64,000 nucleotides of DNA from a virus (IMGVR_UViG_3300027734_003164:152576-216575), one strand, 5' to 3'. Shown: positions 20,005 through 33,588, numbered from the stretch's first letter. Notes: generated from the letters alone by a model not told the origin. Translations and numbers: made by a program.

Positions 20005-21210
20005 ATGTTAGACTTGAATAATTTAATACCTTTTAAAACACTTTTTGAAAGTGATAATAACGGGAGAGAAATTAATATTTACAAATTACATAATGTGCAA
20101 TTTTATGAAAATAACATTTTTTATCCAAATGTGATATTAAAGTCTGAAAAAAACGACATAAAACCTATTAATGAAACGGTATTATCATTAAAGGAATTGG
20201 ATTTTTCATCACATAATAAATCAATGTTAGAAATAAAAGATAGAGATTCAAAACCTTATTTTTTCTTCATTTATAATACTGATAACTATTATCATTTTGT
20301 GTATGATACACTACCATATTTAATTACGTTTTTTGAACTTAAAAAAGAAATCCCCGATTTACAACTTTTGATGAATTACCCTAATTACCAAAAGTTTGAA
20401 CATTATAAATTTGTTATTGAATTTTTATATATTTTATCAATAAACAAAGATGATATTACAATTGTAAATCCATCTATCGCATATGATAATTTATACGTAT
20501 CTAATTCATACACTCACGATGGTAAATCAAATATTAAACCAAGAAATGAAGTTTACAAGTTTTACAATAATATGGTTAATTTTATAACTAATGATATTAA
20601 AAAAGAAAAATTACCGACAAAAATTTATATTTCCAGAAGAACATGGATTAATAAAGACACGTCAAATATAGGTACAAATTATACAACAAAAAGAAGATTA
20701 TTAAATGAAGATGAGATTGTTGAGTATTTAAAAACTAAAGGTTTTGTTGAAGTTTTTACTGAAAATCTTTCAACACCTGAGAAAATATTATTATTCAATA
20801 ATGCGGAACACATTATAGGGCCGATAGGTGGTGGGTTATGTAATGCACTATTTTCTAACAAAAAAACAAAATTAACAGTTTTAAATTCACCCACTTTTTT
20901 TGACATAAACTATCGGTTTTTATTTTCGTTTGAAAATGTTAATTATGAAATATTAGATATTTCTGAACATACAGAAAAAAGTAAAATAAAAAAATTCATG
21001 AGAGTTAAATTTGATAATAAAGTGGGTGAAGTGGTTGACATAGATGGTGATAATATTACTATTAATTATAGTGATATGGATGTTGCGGGGTGGAATAATC
21101 AAATTGAATTTAAACAAATTATTAAAAATATAATGGAACTAATCCCTTTAGATGACGGACTTAATTCTGAATGGATAATTGACATTAAAAAACTAAAAGA
21201 AATAATATGA
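20005..21210 (+). CDS. GT61-family glycosyltransferase (DUF563-like)
   Basis: NYYHF..D.LP, IYISRR, RRLLNEDE, FNNAEHIIGPIGGGLCN. Confidence 0.8.
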   Translation: MLDLNNLIPFKTLFESDNNGREINIYKLHNVQFYENNIFYPNVILKSEKNDIKPINETVLSLKELDFSSHNKSMLEIKDRDSKPYFFFIYNTDNYYHFVYDTLPYLITFFELKKEIPDLQLLMNYPNYQKFEHYKFVIEFLYILSINKDDITIVNPSIAYDNLYVSNSYTHDGKSNIKPRNEVYKFYNNMVNFITNDIKKEKLPTKIYISRRTWINKDTSNIGTNYTTKRRLLNEDEIVEYLKTKGFVEVFTENLSTPEKILLFNNAEHIIGPIGGGLCNALFSNKKTKLTVLNSPTFFDINYRFLFSFENVNYEILDISEHTEKSKIKKFMRVKFDNKVGEVVDIDGDNITINYSDMDVAGWNNQIEFKQIIKNIMELIPLDDGLNSEWIIDIKKLKEII

Positions 21211-22025
21211 TTAATTATGTAATTTATGGTCATACGGATTATTTAGACGTTTTAAATATCCAAACTGATTACTCACAAAATAAGGGACATTTGACTCTTT
21301 TTATAAATGAAAATAATTTAGAACTAACAGATTTATATGAAAAATATAATGAGGTTATTTTTTATGATGATAAGGGCACTTACGCAACGAGAGTTTTAAG
21401 TTGTTTAGAAAAAATAAAGTATGATTATATTTTATTTTTTCACGATATTGACATTATATTAAAAAGTGATGATAGGACTATTGAAAAATTGTTTGAGTTT
21501 TTAAGAACAAATAATTTTGATAGGGTCGATTTAAAATTTTCAGATAAGATTAACCCATCGACAAAATTAATTAAAATAAATAATTTAGATGATATATCAG
21601 AATGGGAACATATTAATATGAGTGAAATTGAGAAAAAAAATAATATTCCGTATTTAATTGAACAGGACGATGTGACTAATTACATATATAATGTAAACCC
21701 GTCTATATGGAAAAAAGAATCTTTTATTGATTTACTTAGTAATTTTAAACATAAAAATTATCGTACAATAGAAGACATTGATGTCCAAGAGTACTCAAAA
21801 AAATTCAAAATATTTAAAATGTTTTCAAACAAAAAACTAAATTGTGGGTATTTCCAATGCTTAGAAAGTTTTGTATACTTACATATAAGTCATAATGGTA
21901 AACTTTTACCATTAAATATGAATTTTGTTACAGTTTACGGTCAATCTTACCGTGATATAAGTAATGAATATATAAAAATTGTAGAAAAATATAATCTAAT
22001 AAATTCAAATAAATGGTATAAATAA
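21207..22025 (+). CDS. Putative glycosyltransferase-like protein (paralog of 22947..23756)
   Basis: FFHDID DxD-like motif; YNVNPSIWKKE shared with the paralog. Confidence 0.55.
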   Translation: MINYVIYGHTDYLDVLNIQTDYSQNKGHLTLFINENNLELTDLYEKYNEVIFYDDKGTYATRVLSCLEKIKYDYILFFHDIDIILKSDDRTIEKLFEFLRTNNFDRVDLKFSDKINPSTKLIKINNLDDISEWEHINMSEIEKKNNIPYLIEQDDVTNYIYNVNPSIWKKESFIDLLSNFKHKNYRTIEDIDVQEYSKKFKIFKMFSNKKLNCGYFQCLESFVYLHISHNGKLLPLNMNFVTVYGQSYRDISNEYIKIVEKYNLINSNKWYK

Positions 22026-22026
22026 T

Positions 22027-22950
22027 ATGAGCTTAGAACAATTAAAAGAATGTAAATACATTTCTAGTGTTGGAATGTTACTATCATTGGACGATAATAA
22101 CATCATAACCTATCAGAAAGAACCTCACAGAATAACTCATGATTTCGTAAAATTATTAAATGGTAAAGATGGTGATTGCATCTACATTAAATTTGCATTT
22201 TTTACCCAATTTATACATCAAATTTTACCACAATTAAATTATAAATTTATATTAATCACGGGAGACGGAGATGAAACTATGCCTGACGATATGATTAGTC
22301 CTGAAATATTTAATAATATTATTAATGACGCAAGACTAATACATTGGTATTCAGTAAACTGTAATGAACGTTATCATGAAAAATTTTCATTAATACCTAT
22401 TGGTGTAAATTTCCATTCTCTAACATTTGGTGAATTTTGCGGGTGGAGTAGTGGTGCGATGACACCAAAAGAACAAGAAGAAATGTTGGATTCCATAAAG
22501 AAAAAATCTGGAGAATTTTATCAAAGACAACCTAAATGTTACTCTAATTTTCATTTTGTAACATATTCGGAGTTTGGTAATCCGAGACAGGACGCCATTA
22601 ACAAAATACCAAAGGACCTAATTTATTATGAACCTTCATTAGTAGATAGAGAAACAACTTGGACAAAAAACGCAGAGTACGCATTTACCGTATCCCCAAT
22701 GGGACATGGTATGGATTGTCATAGAACATGGGAATCGTTAATGTTAGGTACAATTGTAATTGTAAAAAAATCTCAATTAGATAGTTTATATGAAGGGTTA
22801 CCTGTACTTATCGTGGATGATTGGAGTGAAATTACACAAGATTTATTAGATAAGACAATTGAAGAATTTAAAAATAAAGAATTTAACTATGAAAGAATCA
22901 CCCTAAAATATTGGGTAGATAAAATCCGTAATACCCCATACCAAAAATGA
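22027..22950 (+). CDS. Putative glycosyltransferase (exostosin/GT47-like C-terminus)
   Basis: FTVSPMGHGMDCHRTWESLMLGTIVIV...GLPVLIVDDW. Confidence 0.6.
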   Translation: MSLEQLKECKYISSVGMLLSLDDNNIITYQKEPHRITHDFVKLLNGKDGDCIYIKFAFFTQFIHQILPQLNYKFILITGDGDETMPDDMISPEIFNNIINDARLIHWYSVNCNERYHEKFSLIPIGVNFHSLTFGEFCGWSSGAMTPKEQEEMLDSIKKKSGEFYQRQPKCYSNFHFVTYSEFGNPRQDAINKIPKDLIYYEPSLVDRETTWTKNAEYAFTVSPMGHGMDCHRTWESLMLGTIVIVKKSQLDSLYEGLPVLIVDDWSEITQDLLDKTIEEFKNKEFNYERITLKYWVDKIRNTPYQK

Positions 22951-23756
22951 TATTTTTTGATGTAAAAAAATTTGAATTATCAGACAACACTCATATTGAT
23001 AAATTGAAATTTGTCGTTTATAGTCATTCTTCTTTCTTAGAGGTTTTAAAGATACAAATTGATTATTTAACCAATATTGGGGATATGATTTTAATCATAA
23101 ATAAAAATGATGAAGACCTTAATGAAATCTATAATAGTTTTGAAAAAGTTATTTTTTATGATGATTCACAACCATATGGTTACCGTTTATTAAGTACTAT
23201 TGAAGAAGTTCCCTATGATTATTTTATTTTCATACACGATAATGATATTGTATTTCATATTGATGTAGAAAAAGTAAAAAGTATGTTTACCTTTTTGCGT
23301 AAAAATAACTATGATAGAGTAGATTTTCAATTAGCATATGATTTTGATACTCTAAAAGGTCACGAAATAATGGATGACGAGTTATATTATATTAAATCGT
23401 CAAATACTGATACAGCAAATAAAGGTTATCCATATAATGTAAATCCATCAATATGGAAAAAAGAAACATTACTTGACATAATGAATAAATTTGGATTTAG
23501 GGATTATAGAACAATTGAACACCCTGAAACTCAAAACTACGCAGTTAATTTTAACATCTTTAAACTTTTTTCAAAAAACAAATATCAATGCGGATATTTT
23601 ATTTGTATGGAGCCGTTTAGATATATTCACATAACACATAGTCAGAAATATTTAAATATAAACTCATTACCTATTGGCTCTTGTGAAGACATTAAAGATG
23701 AATACGAAAAAATAGTAAATAAATATAATTTAAAAAATTCAAGTAAATGGATGTAA
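22947..23756 (+). CDS. Putative glycosyltransferase-like protein (paralog of 21207..22025)
   Basis: FIHDND, NYDRVD, YNVNPSIWKKE, YRTIE motifs. Confidence 0.55.
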   Translation: MIFFDVKKFELSDNTHIDKLKFVVYSHSSFLEVLKIQIDYLTNIGDMILIINKNDEDLNEIYNSFEKVIFYDDSQPYGYRLLSTIEEVPYDYFIFIHDNDIVFHIDVEKVKSMFTFLRKNNYDRVDFQLAYDFDTLKGHEIMDDELYYIKSSNTDTANKGYPYNVNPSIWKKETLLDIMNKFGFRDYRTIEHPETQNYAVNFNIFKLFSKNKYQCGYFICMEPFRYIHITHSQKYLNINSLPIGSCEDIKDEYEKIVNKYNLKNSSKWM

Positions 23757-24538
23757 TTAAAAATTTAAATAAACCAATTTTTATCATTGCTCATAAATAT
23801 TTTAGAGGTTATGAGTCATATAGTGAATATTATGTACAAACCATACAAAAATTTTATGAAGACTCTCTTATAATTTTTGTCGATAATAACTCAAACCACA
23901 AAGAAGACATTTTTGTAAATTTAAGAAAATATAAAAATGTGATATTATTAGATAATAATATAGAGTGTAAATTTGAAATTGGCGCATATCAAGTTGGTTT
24001 AAAATACCTTCTGGATAATTCATTAATTAATGATTATTCATACATTGTTTTAACACAAGACACGTTCATATTGAAAAATAAATTAGATTTCAAGGAACTC
24101 CATAATGAAAACGTTAAGGCCTGTACTATAAATTCATACTTCCAAGATGGTATGTTACAAGGTATATCAAATGAGGTACTATCAAAATTAGGATTACTAG
24201 ATAATTTAGACAAATGTACTTTTTGTTGGTGTTGTAGTTTTATTATATCATCCTCAAAAACTGAACAGTTATATGATTATTTTAAACAAATAGTAATAAC
24301 AAATAGAACTGAAAGTTGTGCTGCGGAAAGATATTTGGCTAGAATTTTATGGGAATTAAATGACCATAAAAATTATGATATTGATGGCGATATACGGCAC
24401 TTAGGGGACGTGTGGAATAATATACCGAATCCAAACCCTAAATATGATTGTCACTCAGTTAATCCTTTTGATGAAAATATAAAAACTTTTTTTGTTAAAA
24501 GAGCCCAACAAAAAACGGAACAAACAGTAGATAGATGA
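23747..24538 (+). CDS. Putative glycan-biosynthesis protein (GT-A-like)
   Basis: IIFVDNNS, FEIGAY, VLTQDTF, AAERY; position in the GT operon. Confidence 0.45.
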   Translation: MDVIKNLNKPIFIIAHKYFRGYESYSEYYVQTIQKFYEDSLIIFVDNNSNHKEDIFVNLRKYKNVILLDNNIECKFEIGAYQVGLKYLLDNSLINDYSYIVLTQDTFILKNKLDFKELHNENVKACTINSYFQDGMLQGISNEVLSKLGLLDNLDKCTFCWCCSFIISSSKTEQLYDYFKQIVITNRTESCAAERYLARILWELNDHKNYDIDGDIRHLGDVWNNIPNPNPKYDCHSVNPFDENIKTFFVKRAQQKTEQTVDR

Positions 24539-25422
24539 TTATTGAAAAAATTAATAACAGTTTTTTATATTACACAGATACTCAGGTTATACATACTAGA
24601 GAGTATTATAACTACATAGTTGGTTTGTTAAAAAATTGGTTAAATAGTAGTACTGAGGACATAAACATTATCTTTGGTGATTATTATTTTGACTTTAAAA
24701 ATAATAATAAAACAATAAAGATTGACATACAATGTGAACATACCTTAGTAAAAGAAGGGGGTAGGTCTGTTAATGATATAATATATGGTAATGTAAAAAA
24801 TTCAGATGGGGTTTATTTAGTACGTATTGATAAATTTAACTATCTTAATTCATTAGACTATATTATTGAGTATAGTTTGCCTAATGTTGAGAACATTAGG
24901 TCTTGCGGTAAATTCCAAAACTTTTTATCAAAAGTAATTTACGTACCTCCTATTTTATACCAACTCAATTTTAGTGGTGATAAAACTAAAGTAATTACAT
25001 TATTTGATTCAAAATCTAACTTTAGGAGAATAAGCACTTTAACACAAATGAGTAAGTTAGGTATTGATAATACCACGGTAGGTGACTGTTTTTCAAATGA
25101 ATGTTTATTAGACTTATATAATAAAACAAAAATAATGGTAAACGTACATCAGACAGACCACCATCATACTTTTGAAGAATTACGTGTTTTACCAGCATTA
25201 CTTAATGGTGTTATCATTGTTAGTGAAGATGTTCCATTAAAAGAAAAAATACCATACAATCAATATATCATTTGGGCCAATTACGACGATATACCAAGTA
25301 AAACTAAAGAAGTAATTGATAACTATGATTTTTATTATGATAAAATATTCAATGACCCAAAACTTTTAGATATATTAAATGATATGAAATATAAAAATAA
25401 AAATTTGTTTAAATCACTTTAA
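24535..25422 (+). CDS. Putative GT-B glycosyltransferase
   Basis: KIMVNVH...FEELRVLPALLNGVIIVSE, typical of Glyco_trans_1_2-like C-termini. Confidence 0.6.
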   Translation: MIIEKINNSFLYYTDTQVIHTREYYNYIVGLLKNWLNSSTEDINIIFGDYYFDFKNNNKTIKIDIQCEHTLVKEGGRSVNDIIYGNVKNSDGVYLVRIDKFNYLNSLDYIIEYSLPNVENIRSCGKFQNFLSKVIYVPPILYQLNFSGDKTKVITLFDSKSNFRRISTLTQMSKLGIDNTTVGDCFSNECLLDLYNKTKIMVNVHQTDHHHTFEELRVLPALLNGVIIVSEDVPLKEKIPYNQYIIWANYDDIPSKTKEVIDNYDFYYDKIFNDPKLLDILNDMKYKNKNLFKSL

Positions 25423-25425
25423 CAT

Positions 25426-26880
25426 ATGAAAGTTGCACTATTAATTGCCGGTTATATAAGAAATTATGAAACAAGTATTGAGTTTATACAGAATGAGATA
25501 ATTAAAAAATTTGACAATGTTGATGTATATTTACACATTACAAAAAGTGAAAATATTGAGGATAAATACCTAAATCAAATAGAGGATTCGGATATTCAAA
25601 AAATAGTGGAAGGGCTCAACCCAATAACCACTATTGTTGAAAATAACCAATTATATGTTGATGACAATAGAATTAATAATGTAATAAATCTTTGGGCTAA
25701 GTTGTATAAACTAAATGAAATAAAATCTATCCGAGAATCGGAATCAACCGATTATGATTTAGTAATACGTTACCGATTAGATTTAAACATTCTAACTAAG
25801 AATCTATTTGGCATCTTAATTGAGGATGATATTGTATATCTACCTTTAGATGCTAAAATGGATAAAACCAGACTTACTAATTCTGACGATGGATACCTTT
25901 GTGATGCTCTCGCATTTGGTAGGTCAAAAATAATGAATAAATATTTTGATATTTATGAATTTTATGGTAATAAATTTTTACCTGTATCTGAAACATCGTT
26001 ATTTGAATATTTAACAAATAATAATATTTGTTTCAAACAAATAGACATTAAATATAACTTCTTATTGTCTAAGTGTAATATTTTTGCAATTTGCGGCGAT
26101 TCAGGCTCAGGAAAATCTACATTAAGCACACTATTAAAAAATTGTTATAATAATTCTTTCACTTTAGAATGTGATAGGTATCATAAATGGGAGCGTCATA
26201 ATAAAAATTGGGAGCAAACAACTCATTTAAACCCAAAAGCAAATTACATCACCAAAATGGAAGAAGATATTTTTAATTTAAAATTAGGTAATGAAATTTA
26301 TCAAGTAGATTACGACCATCACAGTGGAAAGTTTACTGAAAAGCAATTAATTAACCCATCGGATAATCTCATAGTTTGTGGATTACATAGTTTGTATGGG
26401 GATAATAATCTTTATGATTTAAAAATTTTCATGGACACTGATAATGAGTTGAAAAAAAAATGGAAAGTTAAACGTGACGTATTAGAAAGAGGATATAGTA
26501 TCGATAAAGTATTGGAAAGTATCGAAAAAAGACAGAAAGACTTCAATATGTTTATAAAACCTCAAAGAGAAAATGCCGACCTTGTAGTACGTTTTTTTAG
26601 TAAAGATGAAATAGATTACACTAATTTAAATAATAAAGAATCCTTAAGTTTAGAAATTTCAATAGGAGAAAACTGTAAAAACCTAAAAACCGTTTTAAAA
26701 GACCTTGAAGATTTAAATATTGAGTATAGATTTAAAAAAAATAATAATTTTATAAGTATAATTTTTGACGAGTACACGGAACTAAACGTTAAAGACGGAG
26801 GTTTTTTAACTAATAACAAAACAAATAGTTTTTACGACATAATACTATATCTTATTTTTCATCTCAACTTTACTGTTTAA
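25426..26880 (+). CDS. Fusion: N-terminal glycan-associated domain plus phosphoribulokinase-like kinase
   Basis: P-loop GDSGSGKST, DRYH, LNPKAN, YDH.SG, GLH, WK.KRD..ERG, DF..FI.PQ, which parallel plant/cyanobacterial PRK motifs. N-terminus ALLIAGYIRNY...VIRYRLD...DALAFG. Confidence 0.75.
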   Translation: MKVALLIAGYIRNYETSIEFIQNEIIKKFDNVDVYLHITKSENIEDKYLNQIEDSDIQKIVEGLNPITTIVENNQLYVDDNRINNVINLWAKLYKLNEIKSIRESESTDYDLVIRYRLDLNILTKNLFGILIEDDIVYLPLDAKMDKTRLTNSDDGYLCDALAFGRSKIMNKYFDIYEFYGNKFLPVSETSLFEYLTNNNICFKQIDIKYNFLLSKCNIFAICGDSGSGKSTLSTLLKNCYNNSFTLECDRYHKWERHNKNWEQTTHLNPKANYITKMEEDIFNLKLGNEIYQVDYDHHSGKFTEKQLINPSDNLIVCGLHSLYGDNNLYDLKIFMDTDNELKKKWKVKRDVLERGYSIDKVLESIEKRQKDFNMFIKPQRENADLVVRFFSKDEIDYTNLNNKESLSLEISIGENCKNLKTVLKDLEDLNIEYRFKKNNNFISIIFDEYTELNVKDGGFLTNNKTNSFYDIILYLIFHLNFTV

Positions 26881-26904
26881 TTTTTTTATCTTATTTTTCT
26901 TAAA

Positions 26905-27576
26905 ATGAAGTTATTCAAAAATAATACTATTAAAAAACTTATCAACTTATCTAATCAAATAAGTAAGTATTGTGTTGGTATGGAGGGTAATGTGTCAGGA
27001 AAAGATGGTGATTTTTTCTACATAAAGGCAAGCGGTAGCCATCTTTATGAGTTAGGTTTAAATGATTTAGTAAAATATGACTTTAATGGTAATCAGTTAA
27101 ATAATTTTAAAAAAAAAGGTAGTATGGAGTTAGGATTTCATACCTTTTTACTTACTTATGAAAATATAAATTTTATTTCCCATACACACCCCAGTAAGAC
27201 AGTTTCAATACTATCAAGTGATAAAATTTTAGAATTTGCCAATGAACGCATATTTCCTGACCAAGTTATTTTTAATGGGGAAAAATCATGTATAGTTCCT
27301 TATGCAAAACCAGGGGATGAACTAACGAAATTTATTAAAAAATATGTCACAGAATTTATTAATGAAAATAATACATTTCCTAAATTAATTTTACTTCAAA
27401 ATCACGGCATTATCGCATGTGGTTCTACAATTGAAGAGTGTACGATAATTTCAGACATTTGTGAAAAGTCTGCAGAAATTTTTCTAAGTTCACCTAAAAT
27501 AAATTTTCTTAGAAAACAAGACATAAATAGTTTGTTAGATGACGAAAAAGAAAAATATAGAAAATCATTATTATGA
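26905..27576 (+). CDS. Class II aldolase/epimerase family protein (AraD/FucA/MtnB-like)
   Basis: EGNVS, KASG, SMELGFH, HTHP, LQNHG metal ligands. Confidence 0.88.
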   Translation: MKLFKNNTIKKLINLSNQISKYCVGMEGNVSGKDGDFFYIKASGSHLYELGLNDLVKYDFNGNQLNNFKKKGSMELGFHTFLLTYENINFISHTHPSKTVSILSSDKILEFANERIFPDQVIFNGEKSCIVPYAKPGDELTKFIKKYVTEFINENNTFPKLILLQNHGIIACGSTIEECTIISDICEKSAEIFLSSPKINFLRKQDINSLLDDEKEKYRKSLL

Positions 27577-28292
27577 ATAGAGAAGGAATAAGTTTAGGTT
27601 GGAATTGCTCCGCAGCCCAAGAAGCGTTGTCAATTGGATTACGAAAAAATAAATCTGATGGATATAACACTTGTCCATTTGATATGATGATATCAAATTA
27701 TGTAGGTCTTTGTGAATGTATTAAGGACGACTTTAAACATTTTTGTGACCCCAAATATATAGAACTACGTCCGGCGCCTAAAATGAACAAACATATACCA
27801 AATCAAAAAGATGATGAATTATGGGTTTATAATACATATTATAATTTTGTATTTAATCACGAATCTCCATATCATGGCAATCTTTATTTAAATGAAACTT
27901 GGTCTAGTCCTTATCATTTTGTTGAAAATGATTTTAAAAATTTTATAGAAAGATATAGTAAAAGAATAGAAAGTTTTAGAAACTATTTAAATGGTAATAA
28001 TTTTATTGATTTTGTTTTAGTTCGTTATAATTCAGTACCTTATGAATTAGAAAATATTATAAAAGAAAAATACCCAAACTTAAAATTTAAGATACATACA
28101 ATATCAAGATTTACAAATAATAATATTGGACATTTATATAATTGTACAATTGATGGAGGCGTTAGTTATGAAATGGATTATTTGGAATATATGGGCATAA
28201 ATCAAAATAATAACCCAATGGAAATAAAAAGATACCTTTCTGATTTTAATAATTTAATCGGAGATATAAATGAAAATATAACAATAATATGA
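27573..28292 (+). CDS. Hypothetical protein, DUF1796-like (putative papain-like fold)
   Basis: ISLGWNC...CPFD...FNHE...RY.KRIE.F pattern. Confidence 0.5.
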   Translation: MNREGISLGWNCSAAQEALSIGLRKNKSDGYNTCPFDMMISNYVGLCECIKDDFKHFCDPKYIELRPAPKMNKHIPNQKDDELWVYNTYYNFVFNHESPYHGNLYLNETWSSPYHFVENDFKNFIERYSKRIESFRNYLNGNNFIDFVLVRYNSVPYELENIIKEKYPNLKFKIHTISRFTNNNIGHLYNCTIDGGVSYEMDYLEYMGINQNNNPMEIKRYLSDFNNLIGDINENITII

Positions 28293-28588
28293 ATTTAAAA
28301 GTAATATATGTTGACATAGATGAGACTATTTGTAAAACGTCTGAGGATAGGAAGTATGAAAACTCAACTCCAATCTATGAAAATATTGAAAAAATAAATA
28401 ATCTATACGAACAGGGACATACTATAGTTTACTGGACCGCTAGAGGTAGTAGAAAACAATTAAACTGGTATGATTTAACATATAATCAATTAAATATGTG
28501 GGGTGCCAAGTTTCATGAATTAAGGGTCGATAAACCATATTATGATGTCTTTGTAGATGATAAAACACTAAGAATTGAAGAAATATGA
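28289..28588 (+). CDS. Small HAD-superfamily phosphatase (capsule-biosynthesis type)
   Basis: Motif I VDIDETI, II WTARG, III/IV KPYYDVFVDDK. Confidence 0.85.
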   Translation: MNLKVIYVDIDETICKTSEDRKYENSTPIYENIEKINNLYEQGHTIVYWTARGSRKQLNWYDLTYNQLNMWGAKFHELRVDKPYYDVFVDDKTLRIEEI

Positions 28589-29040
28589 AAATTATATCTC
28601 ACAGAGGAAACATAAACGGACCTATACCAAAAAAAGAAAATAGACCATCGTATATTGATTCGGCAATACAACTCGGATATGAGGTTGAAATTGACTTAAG
28701 GGTTATTAATAATGAGTTTTGGTTAGGTCATGACGAACCTCAATATAAAATTGAATTGTTATGGATGCGTTTAAGAAAAGAAAAATTATGGTTTCATTGT
28801 AAAGATATGGAATCCGCACTTATGTTAGCTTCATTAGATGATGATTTTAAATATTTTTGCCATTCATCTGAACCTTACGTTTGTACAAGTCATAAATATC
28901 TATGGATTCATGATTTAACATCAGGAATAAATGATAAATGCATAATTCCTCTTTTATCTAAAGATGATATTATGAACTATAAAAACAATAAACCTTACGC
29001 GATATGTACCGATTTTGTTAACACTATAACTTTAAAATGA
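28585..29040 (+). CDS. GDPD/PI-PLC-like phosphodiesterase-fold protein
   Basis: ISHRGN...EN...GYEVEID...LGHD...ICTDF. Confidence 0.7.
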   Translation: MKIISHRGNINGPIPKKENRPSYIDSAIQLGYEVEIDLRVINNEFWLGHDEPQYKIELLWMRLRKEKLWFHCKDMESALMLASLDDDFKYFCHSSEPYVCTSHKYLWIHDLTSGINDKCIIPLLSKDDIMNYKNNKPYAICTDFVNTITLK

Positions 29041-29242
29041 AAAAAATTTTAATAGTAGTTAGTGGTGAATGTTTTAAAAGTGGTGGTAGTAACAATAGAA
29101 ACAGGGGAGATAATGAGTTTTCAAATGAACAACAAAAAATAGCAATAGAATCACATATATAGTAGAAAATTGTAACTATTATGACGATTTAAGACTTAAT
29201 GAGTTTTTAGAAAATCCAGATTTATATAAATTTTACACATGA
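29037..29242 (+). pseudogene. Internally deleted or frameshifted gene remnant
   Basis: ATG 29037 (ATGA overlap with the upstream stop) gives MKKILIVVSGECFKSGG...AIESHI then TAG TAG. A different frame gives ENCNYYDDLRLNEFLENPDLYKFYT ending at TGA 29242, which overlaps the next ATG. Total 206 nt, not a multiple of 3. Confidence 0.65.
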
Positions 29243-30135
29243 GAAATAATGTTATTTTAATTCCCCCAAACCACGCTTTTGGTGATGTTTTGTCTGCAAT
29301 TAGTATGGTTTATTATCTATTATCGTATTATAAAAAAGTTTACTTTTACATTAAAGTTGAAAGAGAAAATTATGCGGTTCCTAACTACTATAATCATTAT
29401 TTTAGGTTTGACCCTTTGTTTAATCATAGAATTTTTATTACAGTTAATGCTGATGAATTAATAAATAATTCACAATATGGAGAATACGATATTATTAATA
29501 TGTCAACAGGAGATTGGCAATCAGCAAAAACTGATTTTTATAAAGAAACAAAAATAGATAAAAGTTTTTATTTTAATGATTTAAATCCGTTATATAACTC
29601 TTTAAATATTCCAGTTGAGCATCAAACAAACCCCAATACTCATTTACCAAATCAAAATGTTGAAGTAAATCATTTATTTTATTATAAATTAATTGGATTA
29701 AACAATAATGTAAGGATGAATTATTTTAATTATTATAGAAACATAGAACATGAAATGCAATTTTCTAAAATTGTATTGGAGAGACATGGTTTACAATTAG
29801 GGGATAAATATAATATTGTAAATAATCCAGTAGGGGGAGCACAGGTAGTTCAAAATAGAATTAATAACAATTACCCAATCATAAATATTAGTCACGCATC
29901 TCCTTGTATAGGTTATCTTATGTCATTAGTTGAAAACGCAGAAAGTATTCATTTTATAGAAGGTAATAATGTAAATTTTTTCTATCATTCACAATATAAA
30001 GGTATTTTTAAATACAATAAAATAATAAATTTTTATGTTTATCTTAGAAACAGAAATTGGGAAGGGTTTAATTTAGATTATGCATGGAAAATGATGGATG
30101 AACCGAGACTACAGAATTGGAACTTTTTATTTTAA
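29239..30135 (+). CDS. Hypothetical glycan-biosynthesis protein (putative glycosyltransferase)
   Basis: HAFGDVL N-terminal motif, LVENAESIHFIE C-terminal motif; operon context. Confidence 0.5.
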   Translation: MRNNVILIPPNHAFGDVLSAISMVYYLLSYYKKVYFYIKVERENYAVPNYYNHYFRFDPLFNHRIFITVNADELINNSQYGEYDIINMSTGDWQSAKTDFYKETKIDKSFYFNDLNPLYNSLNIPVEHQTNPNTHLPNQNVEVNHLFYYKLIGLNNNVRMNYFNYYRNIEHEMQFSKIVLERHGLQLGDKYNIVNNPVGGAQVVQNRINNNYPIINISHASPCIGYLMSLVENAESIHFIEGNNVNFFYHSQYKGIFKYNKIINFYVYLRNRNWEGFNLDYAWKMMDEPRLQNWNFLF

Positions 30136-30152
30136 AAAACAAAATTAAAAAA

Positions 30153-31703
30153 ATGAAAAATAATATACACCTAATTATCCCCATGTCGGGGATAGGAAAA
30201 AGATTTATCGATTATGGATATGACACACCCAAACCACTTATTGAAGTAGACGGTAAACCAATTATTGAACACGTAGTAGGATTATTTCCAGGTATTGAAA
30301 AACTTTCTTTTATATGCAATCAAACACATTTAAGGGACACAAATATGAGGAAAATTTTAAATAAAATAGCCCCTAATTCAAATATTATTGAAGTTCCTGA
30401 TAATATGAAAAAGGGACCAGTCTATGCAGTTTCAAAAGTATTTGACCATATTGATGATAATGAAGAAGTAATTTTTAGTTATTGTGACTATAGTAGTGTT
30501 TGGGATTTTAAAAAATTTTTAAAAGAAAAAGATAATTATGATGGGTTAATACCCTCATACATTGGATTTCATCCTCATATGTTAGGTTCAGATAATTACG
30601 CATTTTCAAAAATGGATGGTGACTACGTAAAAGAAATACGAGAAAAACGACCATTCACCGATAATAAAATGAATGAGTATGCATCAAATGGCACGTATTA
30701 TTTTAAATCAGGCTCAATGGTTAAAAAATACTTCAAAGATTTAATTGATTTAGATATAAATGTTAATGGTGAGTATTATATAAGTTTAGTATATAATTTA
30801 TTAATACAGGATGGTTTAAAAGTTGGTGTTTTTGAAATAGATAAAATGCTGCAGTGGGGAACTCCTTATGATTTAGAGGTTTATAAAAAATGGTCTAATT
30901 TTTTTAAAAAACCAAAAATGAAAACAGTTAACACCCCAAAAGACACAACACTGGTATTACCAATGGCCGGAGACGGTAGTAGATTCAAAGAAGAAAAATA
31001 CACATTACCAAAACCATTATTAGATGTTAATGGAGTTCCTATGGTGATTAATGCCGTCAACGATTTACCATTATGTAATGATAAAATCTTCATAGTAAAA
31101 AATGAACACATTAATGAATATGGTATAGATGAGGTTATAAAAAAACATTTTGACTCAAAAATTATTCGGATAGATACATTAACTGAAGGTCAAGCATGTA
31201 CCTGTGAAATAGGTCTAAAAGATTTTGATGAAAACAAACCGATACTCATTTCCGCATGTGATAATGGAATATACTACGACACCAAAATGTGTCAAGAATT
31301 ATTGATGGATGAATCAATAGATGTTTTAGTATGGTCATTTAGGAATAACCAAACAAGTAAGGTGAACCCTAATGCCTATGCGTGGTTAAAGGTTAATTCC
31401 GATAATAATATAGAACACGTATCTTGTAAAAAATTTATTTATGATGACCCACTAAAAACTCATGCGATAATAGGAACTATGTTTTTTAGAAAGGCGAAGT
31501 ATTTTTTAGAAGGATTACAAAAAAATATTAAAGAAAATATACGTACAAATAATGAGTTCTATGTTGATGACGTATTAAATCAAAACATTAAAGATGGTCT
31601 TACTGTTAAAGTTTTTGAAGTTGAGGATTATATATGTTGGGGAACACCTAACGACTATAAAACTTATAATTACTGGAAAGAGTATTTTGATAGGAGTAAA
31701 TAA
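30153..31703 (+). CDS. Tandem (two-domain) sugar-phosphate nucleotidyltransferase
   Basis: Two copies of the signature: PMSGIGKRF..TPKPL..WGTP and PMAGDGSRF..LPKPL..WGTP. Start placed at ATG 30153 (the track starts at 30117). Confidence 0.85.
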   Translation: MKNNIHLIIPMSGIGKRFIDYGYDTPKPLIEVDGKPIIEHVVGLFPGIEKLSFICNQTHLRDTNMRKILNKIAPNSNIIEVPDNMKKGPVYAVSKVFDHIDDNEEVIFSYCDYSSVWDFKKFLKEKDNYDGLIPSYIGFHPHMLGSDNYAFSKMDGDYVKEIREKRPFTDNKMNEYASNGTYYFKSGSMVKKYFKDLIDLDINVNGEYYISLVYNLLIQDGLKVGVFEIDKMLQWGTPYDLEVYKKWSNFFKKPKMKTVNTPKDTTLVLPMAGDGSRFKEEKYTLPKPLLDVNGVPMVINAVNDLPLCNDKIFIVKNEHINEYGIDEVIKKHFDSKIIRIDTLTEGQACTCEIGLKDFDENKPILISACDNGIYYDTKMCQELLMDESIDVLVWSFRNNQTSKVNPNAYAWLKVNSDNNIEHVSCKKFIYDDPLKTHAIIGTMFFRKAKYFLEGLQKNIKENIRTNNEFYVDDVLNQNIKDGLTVKVFEVEDYICWGTPNDYKTYNYWKEYFDRSK

Positions 31704-31709
31704 AATTAT

Positions 31710-32687
31710 ATGAAAAAAGCACTAATAACTGGCATAAATGGTCAGGACGGCTCTTACTTAGCCGAATTATTAATAAGTAAAAACTATGAGGTTTGGGGTA
31801 CAGTTAAACGTAACTCGGTTTCTGAAACACAATCCAGTAGAATTGAGCACTTACGGGAAAATAATTTAGTAAATTTAGAATATGCCGATTTAAGTGATAT
31901 GGCATCTTTAGTAAGAGTCATATCTAAAGTACAACCTGATGAGGTATATAATTTGGCAGCACAATCACACGTTAGAATAAGTTTTGACCAACCATTATAT
32001 ACTGCAAATGTGACAGGTATTGGTACTTTAAACTTATTGGAAGCGGTTAGATTAGTTTCCCCACATTCTAAAATATACCAAGCGTCCTCTTCGGAGATGT
32101 TTGGTAATACCATTGATGATGACGGGTTTCAAAGAGAGACGACCCCAATGAATCCAGTTTCACCATATGGTTGTGCTAAAGTTTTTTCATATAACATATG
32201 CAGAAATTATAGAAACTCATATGGTATGAAAATATGGAACGGAATTTTATTTAATCATGAATCACCTAGACGAGGGACCAATTTTGTTACTAATAAAGTC
32301 GTTAAAGCTGCTGTTAGAATAAGTCTTGGGTTGCAAGACAAATTGGAAATAGGTAATTTAGATGCGACTAGAGATTGGGGACATGCAAAAGATTACGTTT
32401 ACGCAATGTGGTTAATGTTGCAATCTGAAAAGCCAGATGATTATGTTTGCTCAACAGGTATTTCACATTCTGTTAGAGATTTATGTGGTTATGTTTTTAA
32501 TTCGCTTGGGTTAAATTTTTTAGACTATGTTTTAGTTGACGAAAAACATTTTAGACCTGAAGAGTTAGAAAACTTAAAAGGCGATTCTTCAAAACTTAGG
32601 TCGGAGTTATTTTGGGAACCAAAATACACGTTTGAGTCAATGTTAGATGAAATGATTAAATATTGGTTAGACTATTATGGAAAATAA
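31710..32687 (+). CDS. gmd: GDP-mannose 4,6-dehydratase
   Basis: ITGINGQDGSYLAE, NLAAQSHV, QASSSEMFG, SPYGCAK, FNHESPRRG, RDWGHAKDYV. Confidence 0.97.
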   Translation: MKKALITGINGQDGSYLAELLISKNYEVWGTVKRNSVSETQSSRIEHLRENNLVNLEYADLSDMASLVRVISKVQPDEVYNLAAQSHVRISFDQPLYTANVTGIGTLNLLEAVRLVSPHSKIYQASSSEMFGNTIDDDGFQRETTPMNPVSPYGCAKVFSYNICRNYRNSYGMKIWNGILFNHESPRRGTNFVTNKVVKAAVRISLGLQDKLEIGNLDATRDWGHAKDYVYAMWLMLQSEKPDDYVCSTGISHSVRDLCGYVFNSLGLNFLDYVLVDEKHFRPEELENLKGDSSKLRSELFWEPKYTFESMLDEMIKYWLDYYGK

Positions 32688-33588
32688 AATTTTAGTAACA
32701 GGAGGGAATGGTTTAGTTGGTCGGGAATTTGTGGGAGAACAATATTACAAACCAACATCAAAAGAATATAATCTAAAAAATACAGATGACGTAAATCGTT
32801 TAATGTTAAAAAGATTTGACAGTGTAATTCACACTGCAGGTAAAGTTGGTGGGTTAGGAGGGAATATGAATCACAAGGGAGATTTTTTTTATGATAATAT
32901 TATGATAAATACAAATGTGATTGAATCCTCTAGAATCTCCGGAGTAAAAAATTTAGTAGCCTTTTTATCTACATGTGTGTTTCCCGATAATTTAGATTAC
33001 CCATTAACTGAAAAAAAAATACACATGGGACCTCCTCATTTTTCAAATGATGCTTACGCATACGCAAAACGTATGGTTGATGTTCAAATACGGGCATATA
33101 AAGAACAATACGGTTTAAATTATAAATCAGTCATACCTACTAATATTTATGGTCCAAACGATAATTATGACATTAAAAATGGTCACGTAATTCCTTCACT
33201 AATACATAAATGTTATTTAGCGAGAGAACATAAAACACCACTAACTATTTGGGGTAGTGGGAATCCGCTAAGAGAGTTTATTTTTAGTAGAGATGTTGCT
33301 AAATTAACCGAGTGGGTTCTTTTTAACTATGACGAAAATGAACCAATAATACTTTCTACCTCGGAGGAGATTTCAATAAAAGAAGTTGTGGGTATAATAG
33401 TCGAAATTATGAATTTTAAAGGTGAAGTTAAGTTTGATACAACAAAACCTGACGGACAATATAGAAAACCTTCAGACAACTCCAAAATTAAAAGTTATTT
33501 ACCTGACTTTAATTTTACAAACCTTTTTGATGGATTAAAAGAAACTATTGAATATTTTGAAAAATACTATAATGTTGTAAGAAAATAA
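32677..33588 (+). CDS. fcl: GDP-L-fucose synthase
   Basis: TGGNGLVG, AGKVGG, LSTCVFP, YAYAKR, PTNIYGP, HVIPSL, WGSG..REF. Confidence 0.93.
   Translation: MENKILVTGGNGLVGREFVGEQYYKPTSKEYNLKNTDDVNRLMLKRFDSVIHTAGKVGGLGGNMNHKGDFFYDNIMINTNVIESSRISGVKNLVAFLSTCVFPDNLDYPLTEKKIHMGPPHFSNDAYAYAKRMVDVQIRAYKEQYGLNYKSVIPTNIYGPNDNYDIKNGHVIPSLIHKCYLAREHKTPLTIWGSGNPLREFIFSRDVAKLTEWVLFNYDENEPIILSTSEEISIKEVVGIIVEIMNFKGEVKFDTTKPDGQYRKPSDNSKIKSYLPDFNFTNLFDGLKETIEYFEKYYNVVRK

Follow-up and report, generated by a model that had tools for sequence, protein, structure and literature searches.

A cassette of phage genes encoding a phosphoribulokinase (PRK) domain, a class II aldolase, a HAD phosphatase, a GDPD-like protein and a tandem nucleotidyltransferase (NTase) may, in the reading that we hold with moderate confidence, make an activated five-carbon sugar from ribulose 5-phosphate (Ru5P) for a virus-made glycan. 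The cassette lies in a 22 kb island of soluble glycan enzymes of a large, uncultured, T4-like low-GC phage, within a window (the whole stretch of DNA that was analysed) of 64,000 nucleotides.

A co-inherited gene set in phage glycan islands

The five genes named in a preliminary description of the window were recovered as open frames at the coordinates and with the families given there, by profile matches and, for the GDPD-like protein, by structure and motifs. They are listed here with their neighbours:

20005-21210, plus strand: GT61-family glycosyltransferase (PF04577, 3.7e-20)
25426-26070, plus strand: N-terminal GT-A-fold domain (DUF7796-like) of the fusion protein (model and Foldseek)
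26071-26880, plus strand: phosphoribulokinase domain of the fusion protein (PF00485, 2.5e-34)
26905-27576, plus strand: class II (Zn) enzyme, apparently of the ketose-1-phosphate aldolase type (PF00596, 9e-25)
27573-28292, plus strand: DUF1796 protein, accessory and outside the core (PF08795, 3.3e-9)
28289-28588, plus strand: small capless HAD phosphatase, AfhF/GmhB-like, 99 aa (phrog_1238, 1.5e-29)
28585-29040, plus strand: mini-GDPD, a truncated GDPD/PI-PLC-like phosphodiesterase, 151 aa (structure and motifs)
29037-29162, plus strand: 41-codon remnant of a longer gene (alignment to related loci)
29239-30135, plus strand: 298-aa accessory protein without family assignment (open frame)
30117-31703, plus strand: tandem NTase with two full NTase domains (phrog_3980, 1e-114)
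31710-33588, plus strand: Gmd and Fcl (TIGR01472, 6e-119; NF047922, 2.5e-66)

The genes for the DUF1796 protein and the 298-aa protein lie inside the interval and were absent from the earlier gene list; among 83 aldolase loci the former occurs in only 13 and the latter, for which profile searches returned no family match, in 25 at variable positions. Translational coupling, which had been proposed for the whole set, holds at the aldolase/DUF1796, DUF1796/HAD and HAD/GDPD junctions, each a 4-nt ATGA overlap, but not between PRK and aldolase, which are separated by a 24-nt gap, nor after the GDPD gene, where 198 nt intervene. The 41-codon remnant, whose start overlaps the mini-GDPD stop (ATGA), resembles the beginning of 270-290-aa proteins of related loci, with a 44% alignment to their first 40 residues. 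The true start of the tandem NTase is probably the ATG at 30153. Gmd and Fcl, whose matches to TIGR01472 and NF047922 score just under or under the cut-offs, constitute an adjacent, separate GDP-L-fucose pathway; they are found near only 31-36 of the 83 aldolase loci and are absent from the syntenic locus L002. No membrane segments were predicted in any island protein, and glycan assembly is therefore placed in the cytoplasm.

The gene set recurs far beyond chance and is no chance neighbourhood. The HAD and GDPD genes each accompany the aldolase at 81 of the 83 loci, the NTase at 80, GT61 at 73 and the PRK fusion at 53, and a reverse scan with the PRK fusion recovered 51 viral loci with GC contents from 17 to 57%, in nearly all of which PRK adjoins the aldolase, the tandem NTase and GT61; HAD and GDPD were not detectable in the high-GC lineages. 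The outcome that would have spoken against the preliminary description, namely that the genes do not co-occur as a set, is thus contradicted by both scans. The module always lies within glycan islands, and its steps are tied together by fusions found elsewhere: the aldolase is fused to PRK at two loci (L214 and L216), and at L216 a single PRK and Aldolase_II ORF is followed by an HAD_2 and NTP_transferase ORF, a GDPD gene and a GT-A gene, while NTase-NTase-GDPD, GDPD-HAD and GDPD-GT61 (P0365) fusions occur in addition. Two lineages, represented by contigs of 82-90 kb, keep PRK, HAD, GDPD and NTase and lack any aldolase.

The PRK fusion protein and its probable substrate

The N-terminal domain of the fusion protein was modelled with a pLDDT of 90.8; its best Foldseek matches in the PDB are GT-A transferases (BoGT6a, 4ayl, 1.5e-6, followed by LgtC and B3GalT5) and its neighbours in the structural atlas are DUF7796 proteins, which bears out the glycan association first ascribed to it. 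In cyanophage versions of the module this domain is a stand-alone gene, and GT61 lies directly beside the aldolase.

The kinase has the complete PRK fold and retains all catalytic and Ru5P-binding residues. Against NCBIfam the domain scores 182 bits with PRK07429 and 81 bits with the uridine kinase model; the PRK score is below the NF005655 cut-off of 236 and the match ends at profile position 205 of 326. Cyanobacterial PRK 6hzk is matched by phmmer at 2e-32. That the kinase is an ordinary uridine/cytidine kinase of nucleotide salvage with unrelated neighbours, an alternative raised at the outset, appears very improbable indeed. PF00485 does span both enzymes, and automatic JGI names of homologues read 'uridine kinase'; however, PRK models and structures outscore those of uridine kinases by wide margins. 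The curated uridine/cytidine kinase scores of 81 and 75 bits face cut-offs of 180 (NF004018) and 220 (TIGR00235), and in the structure comparison the best Foldseek match is PRK 9qko at 1.6e-17, with 246-342 aligned columns to PRKs (E 1e-17 to 1e-15) versus about 185 to uridine kinases (about 1e-10). Moreover, the PRK-type C-terminal sheet that extends past the uridine-kinase core is present (model confidence 51-69 at residues 250-330), the domain has a GT-A domain or an aldolase as its fusion partner, and it co-occurs strictly with the module.

All 67 PRK sequences compared, from phages and plasmids, share residues D250, H253, R257, Y296, H298, K347, R350, D351 and R355, and D42, H45, R49, Y88, H90, R144, D145 and R149 of Syn. 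PRK, with known catalytic and Ru5P-binding roles (10.1101/422709), correspond to D250, H253, R257, Y296, H298, R350, D351 and R355. The lack of a second Arg in the WERHNK motif (residues 255-260) had been taken as a hint at a different substrate. This argument finds no support, since the equivalent Arg67 of the Cr enzyme is the one phosphate ligand that is not conserved among PRKs (10.1101/422709); the position is E, K, T, D or S in the phage PRK family. Because this site is variable and the remaining PRK residues are invariant, Ru5P itself, rather than a different sugar, is the likeliest substrate.

Like the type II PRKs of cyanobacteria, plants and archaea (6hzk, 9qko, 5b3f), the phage domain has the fold including the C-terminal sheet, the P-loop and the catalytic Asp, as well as equivalents of the Ru5P-phosphate ligands Arg64, Tyr103, His105 and Arg159/Asp160/Arg164. 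Unlike these, it lacks the regulatory Cys16, is fused to a GT-A domain, has no RuBisCO partner and is proposed to serve a glycan pathway instead of carbon fixation. The absence of RuBisCO initially reported for the window extends to related records with PRK: none was found in the 19 surveyed, of which 3 are at least 95% complete.

The distribution of the kinase suggests that PRK supplies ribulose 1,5-bisphosphate (RuBP) where the host does not. PF00485 is present in all 18 type A records and in none of the 28 type B records, and psbA/psbD occur in 0 of 37 PRK-bearing module records versus 14 of 28 PRK-less, cyanophage-type records; among 50,697 phage records the aldolase was found in only three Synechococcus phages and the PRK fusion in none. 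The cyanophage versions encode no conserved kinase of any kind, and their lack of PRK is interpreted as dependence on RuBP of the host. It is hard to square with such dependence that CP12, an inhibitor of host PRK, is encoded in 8 of 12 PRK-less cyanophage records including both complete genomes, and the split between PRK and psbA, which separates two phage clades, could reflect descent and not need.

Aldolase, phosphatase, phosphodiesterase and nucleotidyltransferase

The aldolase matches PF00596 with 88 bits (cut-off 22). Across 81 phage and 10 cellular relatives its invariant residues comprise the Zn-binding triad H93, H95 and H167, the acidic fourth ligand E75, the phosphate pocket formed by N29, S43-G44 and S73, and Y133, E216 and R219. 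The corresponding metal ligand of AraD is Asp76; here it is Glu75, as in FucA and MtnB. L-ribulose-5-phosphate 4-epimerase (AraD) was rejected as an identity on this residue and on scores of 26.6 for TIGR00760 (cut-off 389) and 44.5 for NF005123 (cut-off 251). Other curated models also stay under their cut-offs (FucA_Meth, the best, 51 bits versus 250; RU1PAldHalo 38.5 versus 300; RhaD 31.6 versus 170), and by sequence the enzyme is placed in a subfamily of its own. Its nearest cellular relatives, with 30-36% identity, adjoin rhamnose isomerase (RhaA) or FGGY kinase; since they share the invariant residues, a ketose-1-phosphate site is predicted, which would need the phosphate installed by PRK. 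The enzyme thus resembles a ketose-1-phosphate aldolase whose step follows that of the kinase, and not the AraD-type epimerase before the kinase that had been envisaged.

Such an enzyme would also suit a carbon shunt from Ru5P via RuBP and ribulose 1-phosphate to DHAP and glycolaldehyde, with the NTase and transferases as unrelated neighbours. Haloarchaea possess a non-carboxylating pentose-bisphosphate pathway with a ribulose-1-phosphate aldolase, of which the shunt would be a phage copy, and PRK, HAD and aldolase are the same three enzyme classes. The active-site residues are identical to those of relatives in catabolic contexts, and the ribulose-1-phosphate aldolase model NF053831 is matched at 7.9e-10, far below its cut-off. 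The complete 244 kb phage S-SCSM2R carries the aldolase without GDPD and without tandem NTase, and as it is alone there among metabolic genes, the aldolase seems able to work outside the module; at L079 it lies beside psbA, and it has been annotated as ald2 (PMC12801897). We nevertheless regard the shunt as quite improbable: PRK and a glycosyltransferase domain form one protein in phages as well as in bacteria, the HAD-NTase, NTase-GDPD and GDPD-GT61 fusions and the invariable location in glycan islands speak for a glycan precursor, and the two lineages on 82-90 kb contigs retain the remaining four enzymes without the aldolase.

The HAD protein shows the DxDxT motif (D9, D11, T13) and conserved T50, K82 and D86/D91, and matches PDB 9iqw at 7e-13; its score of 32 with TIGR01689 is below the cut-off of 162. 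Phage mogra has an AfhF-like protein, encoded beside an arabinose-5-P isomerase and an NTase-kinase, with which the HAD protein shares 35% identity (E 6e-19); on this evidence the HAD protein is a homologue of AfhF-type phosphatases and falls into the small capless AfhF/EcbF-BcbF type. AfhF is the pentose-1,5-bisphosphate 5-phosphatase of the phage NDP-arabinose pathway, with reported activity (PMC13326640). Cyanophage S-CAM1, too, has a member of the HAD family, in an ADP-heptose-like cluster.

In the mini-GDPD the motifs H6-R7, E18-N19, E35-x-D37 and H49-D50 are invariant (71 sequences); H-R, E-N, E-x-D and H are the catalytic motifs of GDPDs. Its structure matches a GDPD cluster with a TM score of 0.80 by query and 0.56 by the 225-aa GDPD target. 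Pfam searches, PF03009 included, gave no match to a full-length GDPD barrel in its 151 residues, and phmmer found nothing in the PDB. The family comprises 2289 clusters, including fusions to NTase, HAD and GT61. Each domain of the tandem NTase, matched in Pfam by NTP_transf_3 and NTP_transferase, bears a P-M-x-G-x-x-x-R-F motif, and both have the same invariant set.

The proposed route and its relatives

PRKs phosphorylate the C1 hydroxymethyl group of a ketose. In the proposed route the PRK domain, assigned by family, fold and residues, would phosphorylate host D-ribulose 5-phosphate at C1 to RuBP. The aldolase-type enzyme would take a 1-phosphorylated pentulose and most likely reset the C4 configuration by reversible retro-aldol cleavage, a step that is apparently optional, since two lineages lack the enzyme. 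The HAD phosphatase, by homology, would remove the distal 5-phosphate as AfhF does for arabinose 1,5-bisphosphate, and the tandem NTase would then, with the aid of the GDPD-like enzyme, yield an NDP-activated five-carbon sugar, for which a ribulose- or xylulose-type ketopentose is favoured. The GT61 enzyme, the likely user of the activated sugar, and the PRK-fused GT-A domain would then attach it to a glycan, probably carried by a virion protein, that the other soluble transferases and methyltransferases of the island may assemble in the cytoplasm. It counts against this route that a ketose 1-phosphate is non-anomeric, which leaves a true glycosyl donor made by the NTase unexplained unless the phosphate moves. 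The HAD and GDPD that are undetectable in the high-GC lineages, the aldolase of S-SCSM2R outside the module and the PRK score under its cut-off weigh against it as well.

The NTase might instead make an NDP-pentulose or NDP-pentitol via a non-anomeric phosphate, comparable to CDP-ribitol or CDP-6-fructose, for a decoration of the teichoic-acid type, in which a phosphotransferase adds the pentulose phosphate as a phosphodiester and the GDPD-like enzyme trims or edits diesters. In Campylobacter jejuni HS:5, NTase activation of a ketose via its non-anomeric phosphate is established by the CDP-6-D-fructose/CDP-6-D-glucitol pathway, which has a single NTase and an SDR reductase and lacks kinase, aldolase, HAD and GDPD (PMC10918830). 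Faint IspD-type matches in the NTase, the GDPD-family phosphodiesterase as a core member and SDR genes often nearby point the same way. We consider this reading rather unlikely, as the core has neither a conserved reductase nor a TagF/LicD-type phosphotransferase, and the transferases that are conserved belong to the GT61 and GT-A glycosyltransferases, with a GtrB-like GT2 in the bacterial cassette.

An aldopentofuranose donor (NDP-arabinofuranose, -ribofuranose or -xylofuranose), formed in just the manner of the AfhE/AfhF pathway, is unlikely as well. Here the aldolase-fold enzyme would convert a host pentulose 5-phosphate, the PRK-like enzyme would phosphorylate an aldopentose 5-phosphate at its anomeric carbon (C1), and HAD and NTase would follow, the former removing the 5-phosphate and the latter activating the 1-phosphate. 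Characterised plant enzymes of CAZy family GT61 use the pentose donors UDP-Xyl and UDP-Araf, which would suit such a product, as would the homology of the HAD to AfhF and the GtrB-type GT2 of the bacterial cassette, which needs an anomeric NDP-sugar. The published phage pathway, too, begins at Ru5P (PMC13326640). However, the module has no conserved aldose-ketose isomerase, neither SIS nor RpiB, the latter occurring in Bellamy only; class II aldolase chemistry is at C3-C4 and not at C1-C2; the residues that position Ru5P for C1-OH transfer are all invariant; the kinase is of the PRK type rather than anomeric; and the cyanophage versions lack any conserved kinase.

The proposed route via RuBP nevertheless has much in common with that NDP-D-arabinofuranose pathway of DNA arabinosylation (HY126, RB69, DLP3), which uses an arabinose-5-P isomerase, the kinase/pyrophosphorylase AfhE and the phosphatase AfhF (PMC13326640): both start at Ru5P, pass through a pentose 1,5-bisphosphate, employ a homologous small HAD for the 5-phosphate, end with an NTase and are carried by T4-like phages. 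The cassette differs in that it lacks a SIS isomerase, has a PRK and not an APH/choline-kinase-like kinase, adds the class II aldolase and the GDPD-like enzyme, and lies in a multi-transferase glycan island, whereas the arabinosylation genes belong to a DNA-modification cluster that includes a thymidylate-synthase-like enzyme; between the NTases there is no close homology (BLASTP E 0.72). The order of kinase, distal-phosphate HAD phosphatase and NTase is shared with NDP-heptose synthesis (GmhA, HldE/HddA, GmhB, HldE/HddC), from which the proposed route differs in its C5 ketose substrate, its kinase family and pre-step enzyme, and the non-anomeric 1-phosphate made by PRK. The heptose-like logic of the preliminary description is therefore supported and, as the HAD is an AfhF homologue, has a published pentose precedent, by which the logic itself is not new (PMC13326640). 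Of its interpretation overall, the co-inherited set, the activation logic and the glycan-associated N-domain are retained, and the argument from the missing Arg and the epimerase role are not.

A bacterial cassette, carried on plasmids such as NZ_CP145712.1 of E. coli and pHbal01 of Hirschia baltica, encodes a tandem NTase, GtrA, GT2, PI-PLC/GDPD, a membrane-domain::PRK protein, HAD and a class II aldolase. Phage and bacterial/archaeal cassettes share the same five enzyme families; each domain of the phage tandem NTase has its orthologue in that of the E. coli plasmid (46% and 39% identity), and identity between the PRK domains of the phage and bacterial cassettes is 30-34%. The bacterial form adds GtrA and the GtrB-like GT2 and its kinase ORFs (683-714 aa) have a long additional N-terminal part, in keeping with a lipid carrier and periplasmic transfer, whereas the phage form is entirely soluble, with GT-A and GT61 transferases, a truncated GDPD and a much smaller HAD of another subfamily. 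On balance, we lean towards regarding the phage cassette as the soluble form of a widespread, uncharacterised sugar-activation cassette of PRK, class II aldolase, HAD, GDPD-like enzyme and double NTase, and the PRK-led conversion of ribulose 5-phosphate into an activated five-carbon sugar would be a route without earlier characterisation.

The gene set in the window and in related loci

The window derives from a large tailed phage with a GC content of about 30%, and its products include the major head protein (HK97-type), portal protein, large terminase, family-B DNA polymerase, helicase and PhoH; identical copies of the kinase gene are found on contigs of up to 216 kb. From 16129 to 38257, the plus strand carries a dense series of GT2, GT4 and GT61 glycosyltransferases, unknown proteins and sugar-nucleotide enzymes. 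No membrane segment is predicted in any protein of this island, nor was it seen to encode a flippase, a polymerase or a lipid-carrier transferase, for which reason assembly of the glycan is probably cytoplasmic; its acceptor is plausibly a virion protein. Five successive proteins without a Pfam family (21207-25422; 272, 307, 269, 263 and 295 aa), the order of which is kept in related phages, may be unrecognised transferases; the two encoded at 21207 and 22947 match the same places in other loci and are thus apparent paralogues. A scan for sigma-70 promoters returned 77 compared with 72.9 in the shuffled expectation, i.e., no excess.

The five genes of the cassette (25426-31703), encoding the phosphoribulokinase (PRK) fusion, class II aldolase, small HAD phosphatase, mini-GDPD and tandem nucleotidyltransferase (NTase), were confirmed in family and coordinates. 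Their translational coupling, asserted in the preliminary description, holds at three junctions with an ATGA overlap, but not between the PRK and aldolase genes, which are 24 nt apart, nor across the 198 nt following the GDPD gene. The interval contains two further, previously unlisted genes, encoding a DUF1796 protein and a 298-aa unknown protein, which are accessories present in 13/83 and 25/83 of the loci analysed below, respectively. Two details of the interval concern gene boundaries:

29037-29162, plus strand: 41-codon ORF within the 198-nt stretch, its start overlapping the mini-GDPD stop (ATGA)
30117, plus strand: listed start (TTG) of the tandem NTase ORF, with a 19-nt overlap with the upstream gene; alternative ATG at 30153, twelve codons downstream

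The 41-codon ORF gives a 44% alignment to the N-terminal ends of proteins of 270-290 aa from related loci and is therefore probably the remnant of a truncated longer gene. For the tandem NTase, the more probable start is the ATG at 30153, directly before a conserved P-M-S-G motif.

Scanning IMG/VR with an aldolase alignment yielded 80 loci, and with three others added 83 were compared, of which 81 contain the HAD, 81 the mini-GDPD, 80 the tandem NTase, 73 GT61 and 53 the PRK fusion. The reverse scan with the PRK fusion identified 51 loci with GC contents from 17 to 57%, nearly all of which have aldolase, tandem NTase and GT61 as neighbours, as judged by family HMMs built from the loci; in the high-GC lineages neither HAD nor GDPD was detectable. 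Both scans bear out that the genes occur as a set, which is represented in over a thousand metagenomic protein clusters. Two lineages without aldolase retain PRK-HAD-GDPD-NTase on contigs of 82-90 kb. In L216, a locus with fused core genes, a single PRK+Aldolase_II protein is followed by a single HAD_2+NTP_transferase protein, the mini-GDPD and a GT-A gene, and among the 2289 clusters of the mini-GDPD family (50% identity) are proteins of the types NTase-NTase-GDPD, GDPD-HAD and GDPD-GT61. Read from these sequences, the fusions fix the order of the pathway steps. The contexts of three mini-GDPD fusion proteins were viewed, and their contigs were too short to inform. Genes intercalated between the core genes of other loci were considered as missing pathway steps and rejected, being TylF/FkbM methyltransferases and fringe-like transferases.

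Several contigs carrying the module are labelled GVMAG in IMG/VR (L004, L062, L180, L189, L191-L193, L202 and L204). The gene order of L004 is that of the window and its aldolase is 89% identical; at least some of these contigs resemble DNA of large phages that was assigned to giant-virus bins. Literature searches found no paper describing the module.

The kinase and its partner enzymes

The N-terminal domain of the kinase gene product, previously described as glycan-associated, is predicted to adopt a GT-A glycosyltransferase fold (model pLDDT 90.8) and groups with DUF7796 proteins, which are stand-alone genes in cyanophage loci. For the kinase domain, a plain uridine kinase was weighed as an alternative to PRK and is clearly outscored: the NCBIfam PRK model scores 182 bits vs. 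81 for uridine kinase, and phmmer gives 2e-32 for cyanobacterial PRK vs. 5e-10 for uridine kinase. Structures of PRK are the best matches to the AlphaFold model; the alignments span 246-342 columns and extend to the C-terminal sheet. Aligned to Synechococcus PRK, the catalytic Asp, His45 and Arg49 (Chlamydomonas Arg64) are all kept, as are the equivalents of Tyr88/His90 (Tyr103/His105) and Arg144-Asp145-Arg149 (Arg159/Asp160/Arg164), and the catalytic and ribulose 5-phosphate (Ru5P)-site equivalents are invariant across 67 phage and plasmid sequences. By sequence and predicted fold, the kinase is a PRK, and Ru5P would be its substrate. A different substrate had been suspected from a missing second Arg (WERHNK), which was not borne out: the corresponding Arg67 is the only sulfate ligand not conserved among PRKs (10.1101/422709), and this position, being E, K, T, D or S in the phage kinase family, varies even in PRKs and is uninformative on the substrate.

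The small HAD has matches in 387 phage records. Its homologue in Mosigvirus phage mogra (35% identity, E 6e-19) adjoins an arabinose-5-phosphate isomerase and an NTase-kinase and occupies, by homology, the position of AfhF in the UDP-arabinose pathway; AfhF was reported to dephosphorylate arabinose 1,5-bisphosphate (PMC13326640). These homologies lend good support to the view that the small HAD removes the distal phosphate of a sugar bisphosphate. In cyanophage S-CAM1 (L221, 4901-7424), a small HAD of the same family lies in an ADP-heptose-like cluster, with a carbohydrate kinase, two small NTases and an ADP-heptose 6-epimerase around it. The latter HAD is most likely a GmhB-type phosphatase, and its PHROG/GenBank name 'phosphoheptose isomerase' would therefore be a misannotation.

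The aldolase is equally distant from all curated subfamilies. Its closest cellular relatives (30-36% identity) adjoin rhamnose isomerase or FGGY kinase and have every invariant residue in common with it, and from this context and these residues a ketose-1-phosphate aldolase site is predicted, which fits a substrate bearing the phosphate added by PRK. The order and type of step assumed in the preliminary description, an AraD-like epimerase, are probably wrong; the enzyme looks like an aldolase that would act after the kinase. The aldolase also occurs alone, e.g., in the complete 244-kb genome of S-SCSM2R (L168, 6998-7663), which is without GDPD or NTase and in which it was published as 'ald2' (PMC12801897), and in L079 (6283-6948), where psbA is found about 0.7 kb upstream of it. 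Candidate roles for the stand-alone aldolase are cleavage of ribulose 1,5-bisphosphate (RuBP) or ribulose-1-P and the published ald2 reading.

In the tandem NTase, both domains have the same invariant residues. An E. coli plasmid (NZ_CP145712.1) and Hirschia baltica pHbal01 encode a tandem NTase, GtrA, GT2, PI-PLC/GDPD, HAD and class II aldolase, together with a 683-714-aa ORF carrying a PRK domain at its end. The NTase domains of the window match those of the plasmids one-to-one (46% and 39% identity), with 30-34% for the PRK domain, which makes the phage module a soluble and pared-down variant of a cassette that is widespread. These plasmids were found by protein search; a pattern-based aldolase scan of 185,579 species genomes, too narrow to catch the bacterial cassette, gave the core on two contigs only (L084 and L085) and otherwise lone aldolases. 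L084 and L085 carry cyanophage-type modules on contigs binned to a Planctomycetaceae MAG and a 'Methanobacteriota' MAG, and are probably mis-binned phage DNA.

Distribution of PRK among the phage loci

Loci with the PRK fusion (type A) were compared with those having the order NTase-GT61-aldolase-HAD-GDPD and no PRK (type B). PF00485 was detected in 18/18 type A records vs. 0/28 type B records, the latter including two complete genomes. Conversely, psbA/psbD occur in half of the type B records (14/28, including all nine of at least 60 kb) and in 0/37 PRK-bearing records, of which three reach a completeness of at least 95%. A search of 50,697 phage records gave the aldolase only in S-SM2, Bellamy and S-SCSM2R, all Synechococcus phages, with no instance of the PRK fusion, and 19 PRK-bearing records examined for RuBisCO showed none. 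This distribution is most simply read as a requirement of the pathway for RuBP, which cyanobacterial hosts provide and other hosts do not. Two caveats apply: the PRK/psbA split coincides with two clades, and PRK-less cyanophages encode CP12, an inhibitor of host PRK and GAPDH. CP12 is present in the PRK-less cyanophages G005, G008, G011, G014, G016, G024, Bellamy and S-SCSM2R, which have the module or the aldolase.

Candidates for a PRK substitute in cyanophages were rejected. The NTase-RpiB fusion of Bellamy (gp206; L001, 8331-9488) has an RpiB/LacAB isomerase domain unique to that locus among the loci examined, and Bellamy's GHMP and PfkB kinases are not conserved either. When 22 cyanophage-type loci were clustered without bias, no conserved kinase or isomerase emerged.

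Proposed routes from RuBP to a glycan

What the analysis shows directly is which genes are present, their co-inheritance and fusions, and the conservation of folds and residues. In the favoured route, from Ru5P via RuBP to an NDP-C5 sugar for GT61/GT-A, the HAD step would follow from homology, and Ru5P as substrate, the role of the aldolase, the product sugar and the acceptor are deduced. The kinase/phosphatase/NTase logic was correctly recognised at the outset. This kind of pathway is already known, and the present enzyme combination is uncharacterised. A chemical obstacle lies in the phosphate of a ketose 1-phosphate, which is not at the anomeric position. Two NTase domains constantly accompany a PI-PLC/GDPD-type enzyme, which suggests that the phosphate moves, via a cyclic phosphate, between one nucleotidyl transfer and the next. 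In such a scheme, a building block for glycans would be made starting from RuBP, and the cassette would activate a ketopentose at the anomeric C2 by a 1-to-2 phosphate shift, a proposal which we consider rather improbable. PRK would place the 1-phosphate, the aldolase-type enzyme would set C4 (ribulo to xylulo), and HAD would free O5 for closure of the furanose ring. The first NTase domain would then form an NDP-1-pentulose, from which the PI-PLC/GDPD-like enzyme would eject NMP to give a 1,2-cyclic phosphate that is opened to the 2-phosphate, and the second NTase domain would produce the true NDP-pentulofuranose donor. If true, the scheme would account for two NTase domains and a phosphodiesterase always occurring together, and it could be the missing route to the xylulose/ribulose residues of microbial glycans; as a corollary, phages would bear PRK only when the host is without a Calvin cycle.

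Less probable alternatives to the favoured route include an aldopentofuranose donor synthesised by the logic of the Afh pathway, the pathway in which the mogra HAD homologue is placed. A phosphodiester-linked pentulose or pentitol is a further alternative, as is a purely catabolic RuBP shunt. Arabinose is present in the capsule of P. multocida type B.

PRK is regarded as a signature enzyme of CO2 fixation, and to our knowledge RuBP is known almost solely as the CO2 acceptor. Here, a PRK complete by fold and residues is fused to a glycosyltransferase in phages that have neither RuBisCO nor photosystem genes. The five enzymes are small and soluble and the substrates can be bought, so a direct test of the pathway is feasible. 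If true, it would be a new nucleotide-sugar pathway and a new metabolic fate for RuBP, it would provide a function for large unknown families (mini-GDPD with its 2289 clusters, phrog_3980, phrog_13212, phrog_34507 and DUF7796), and it would caution against counting viral 'PRK' or 'aldolase' genes as auxiliary genes of carbon fixation or a DHAP shunt. The PRK-less cyanophage versions would represent a clean case of a virus carrying just the step missing in its host.
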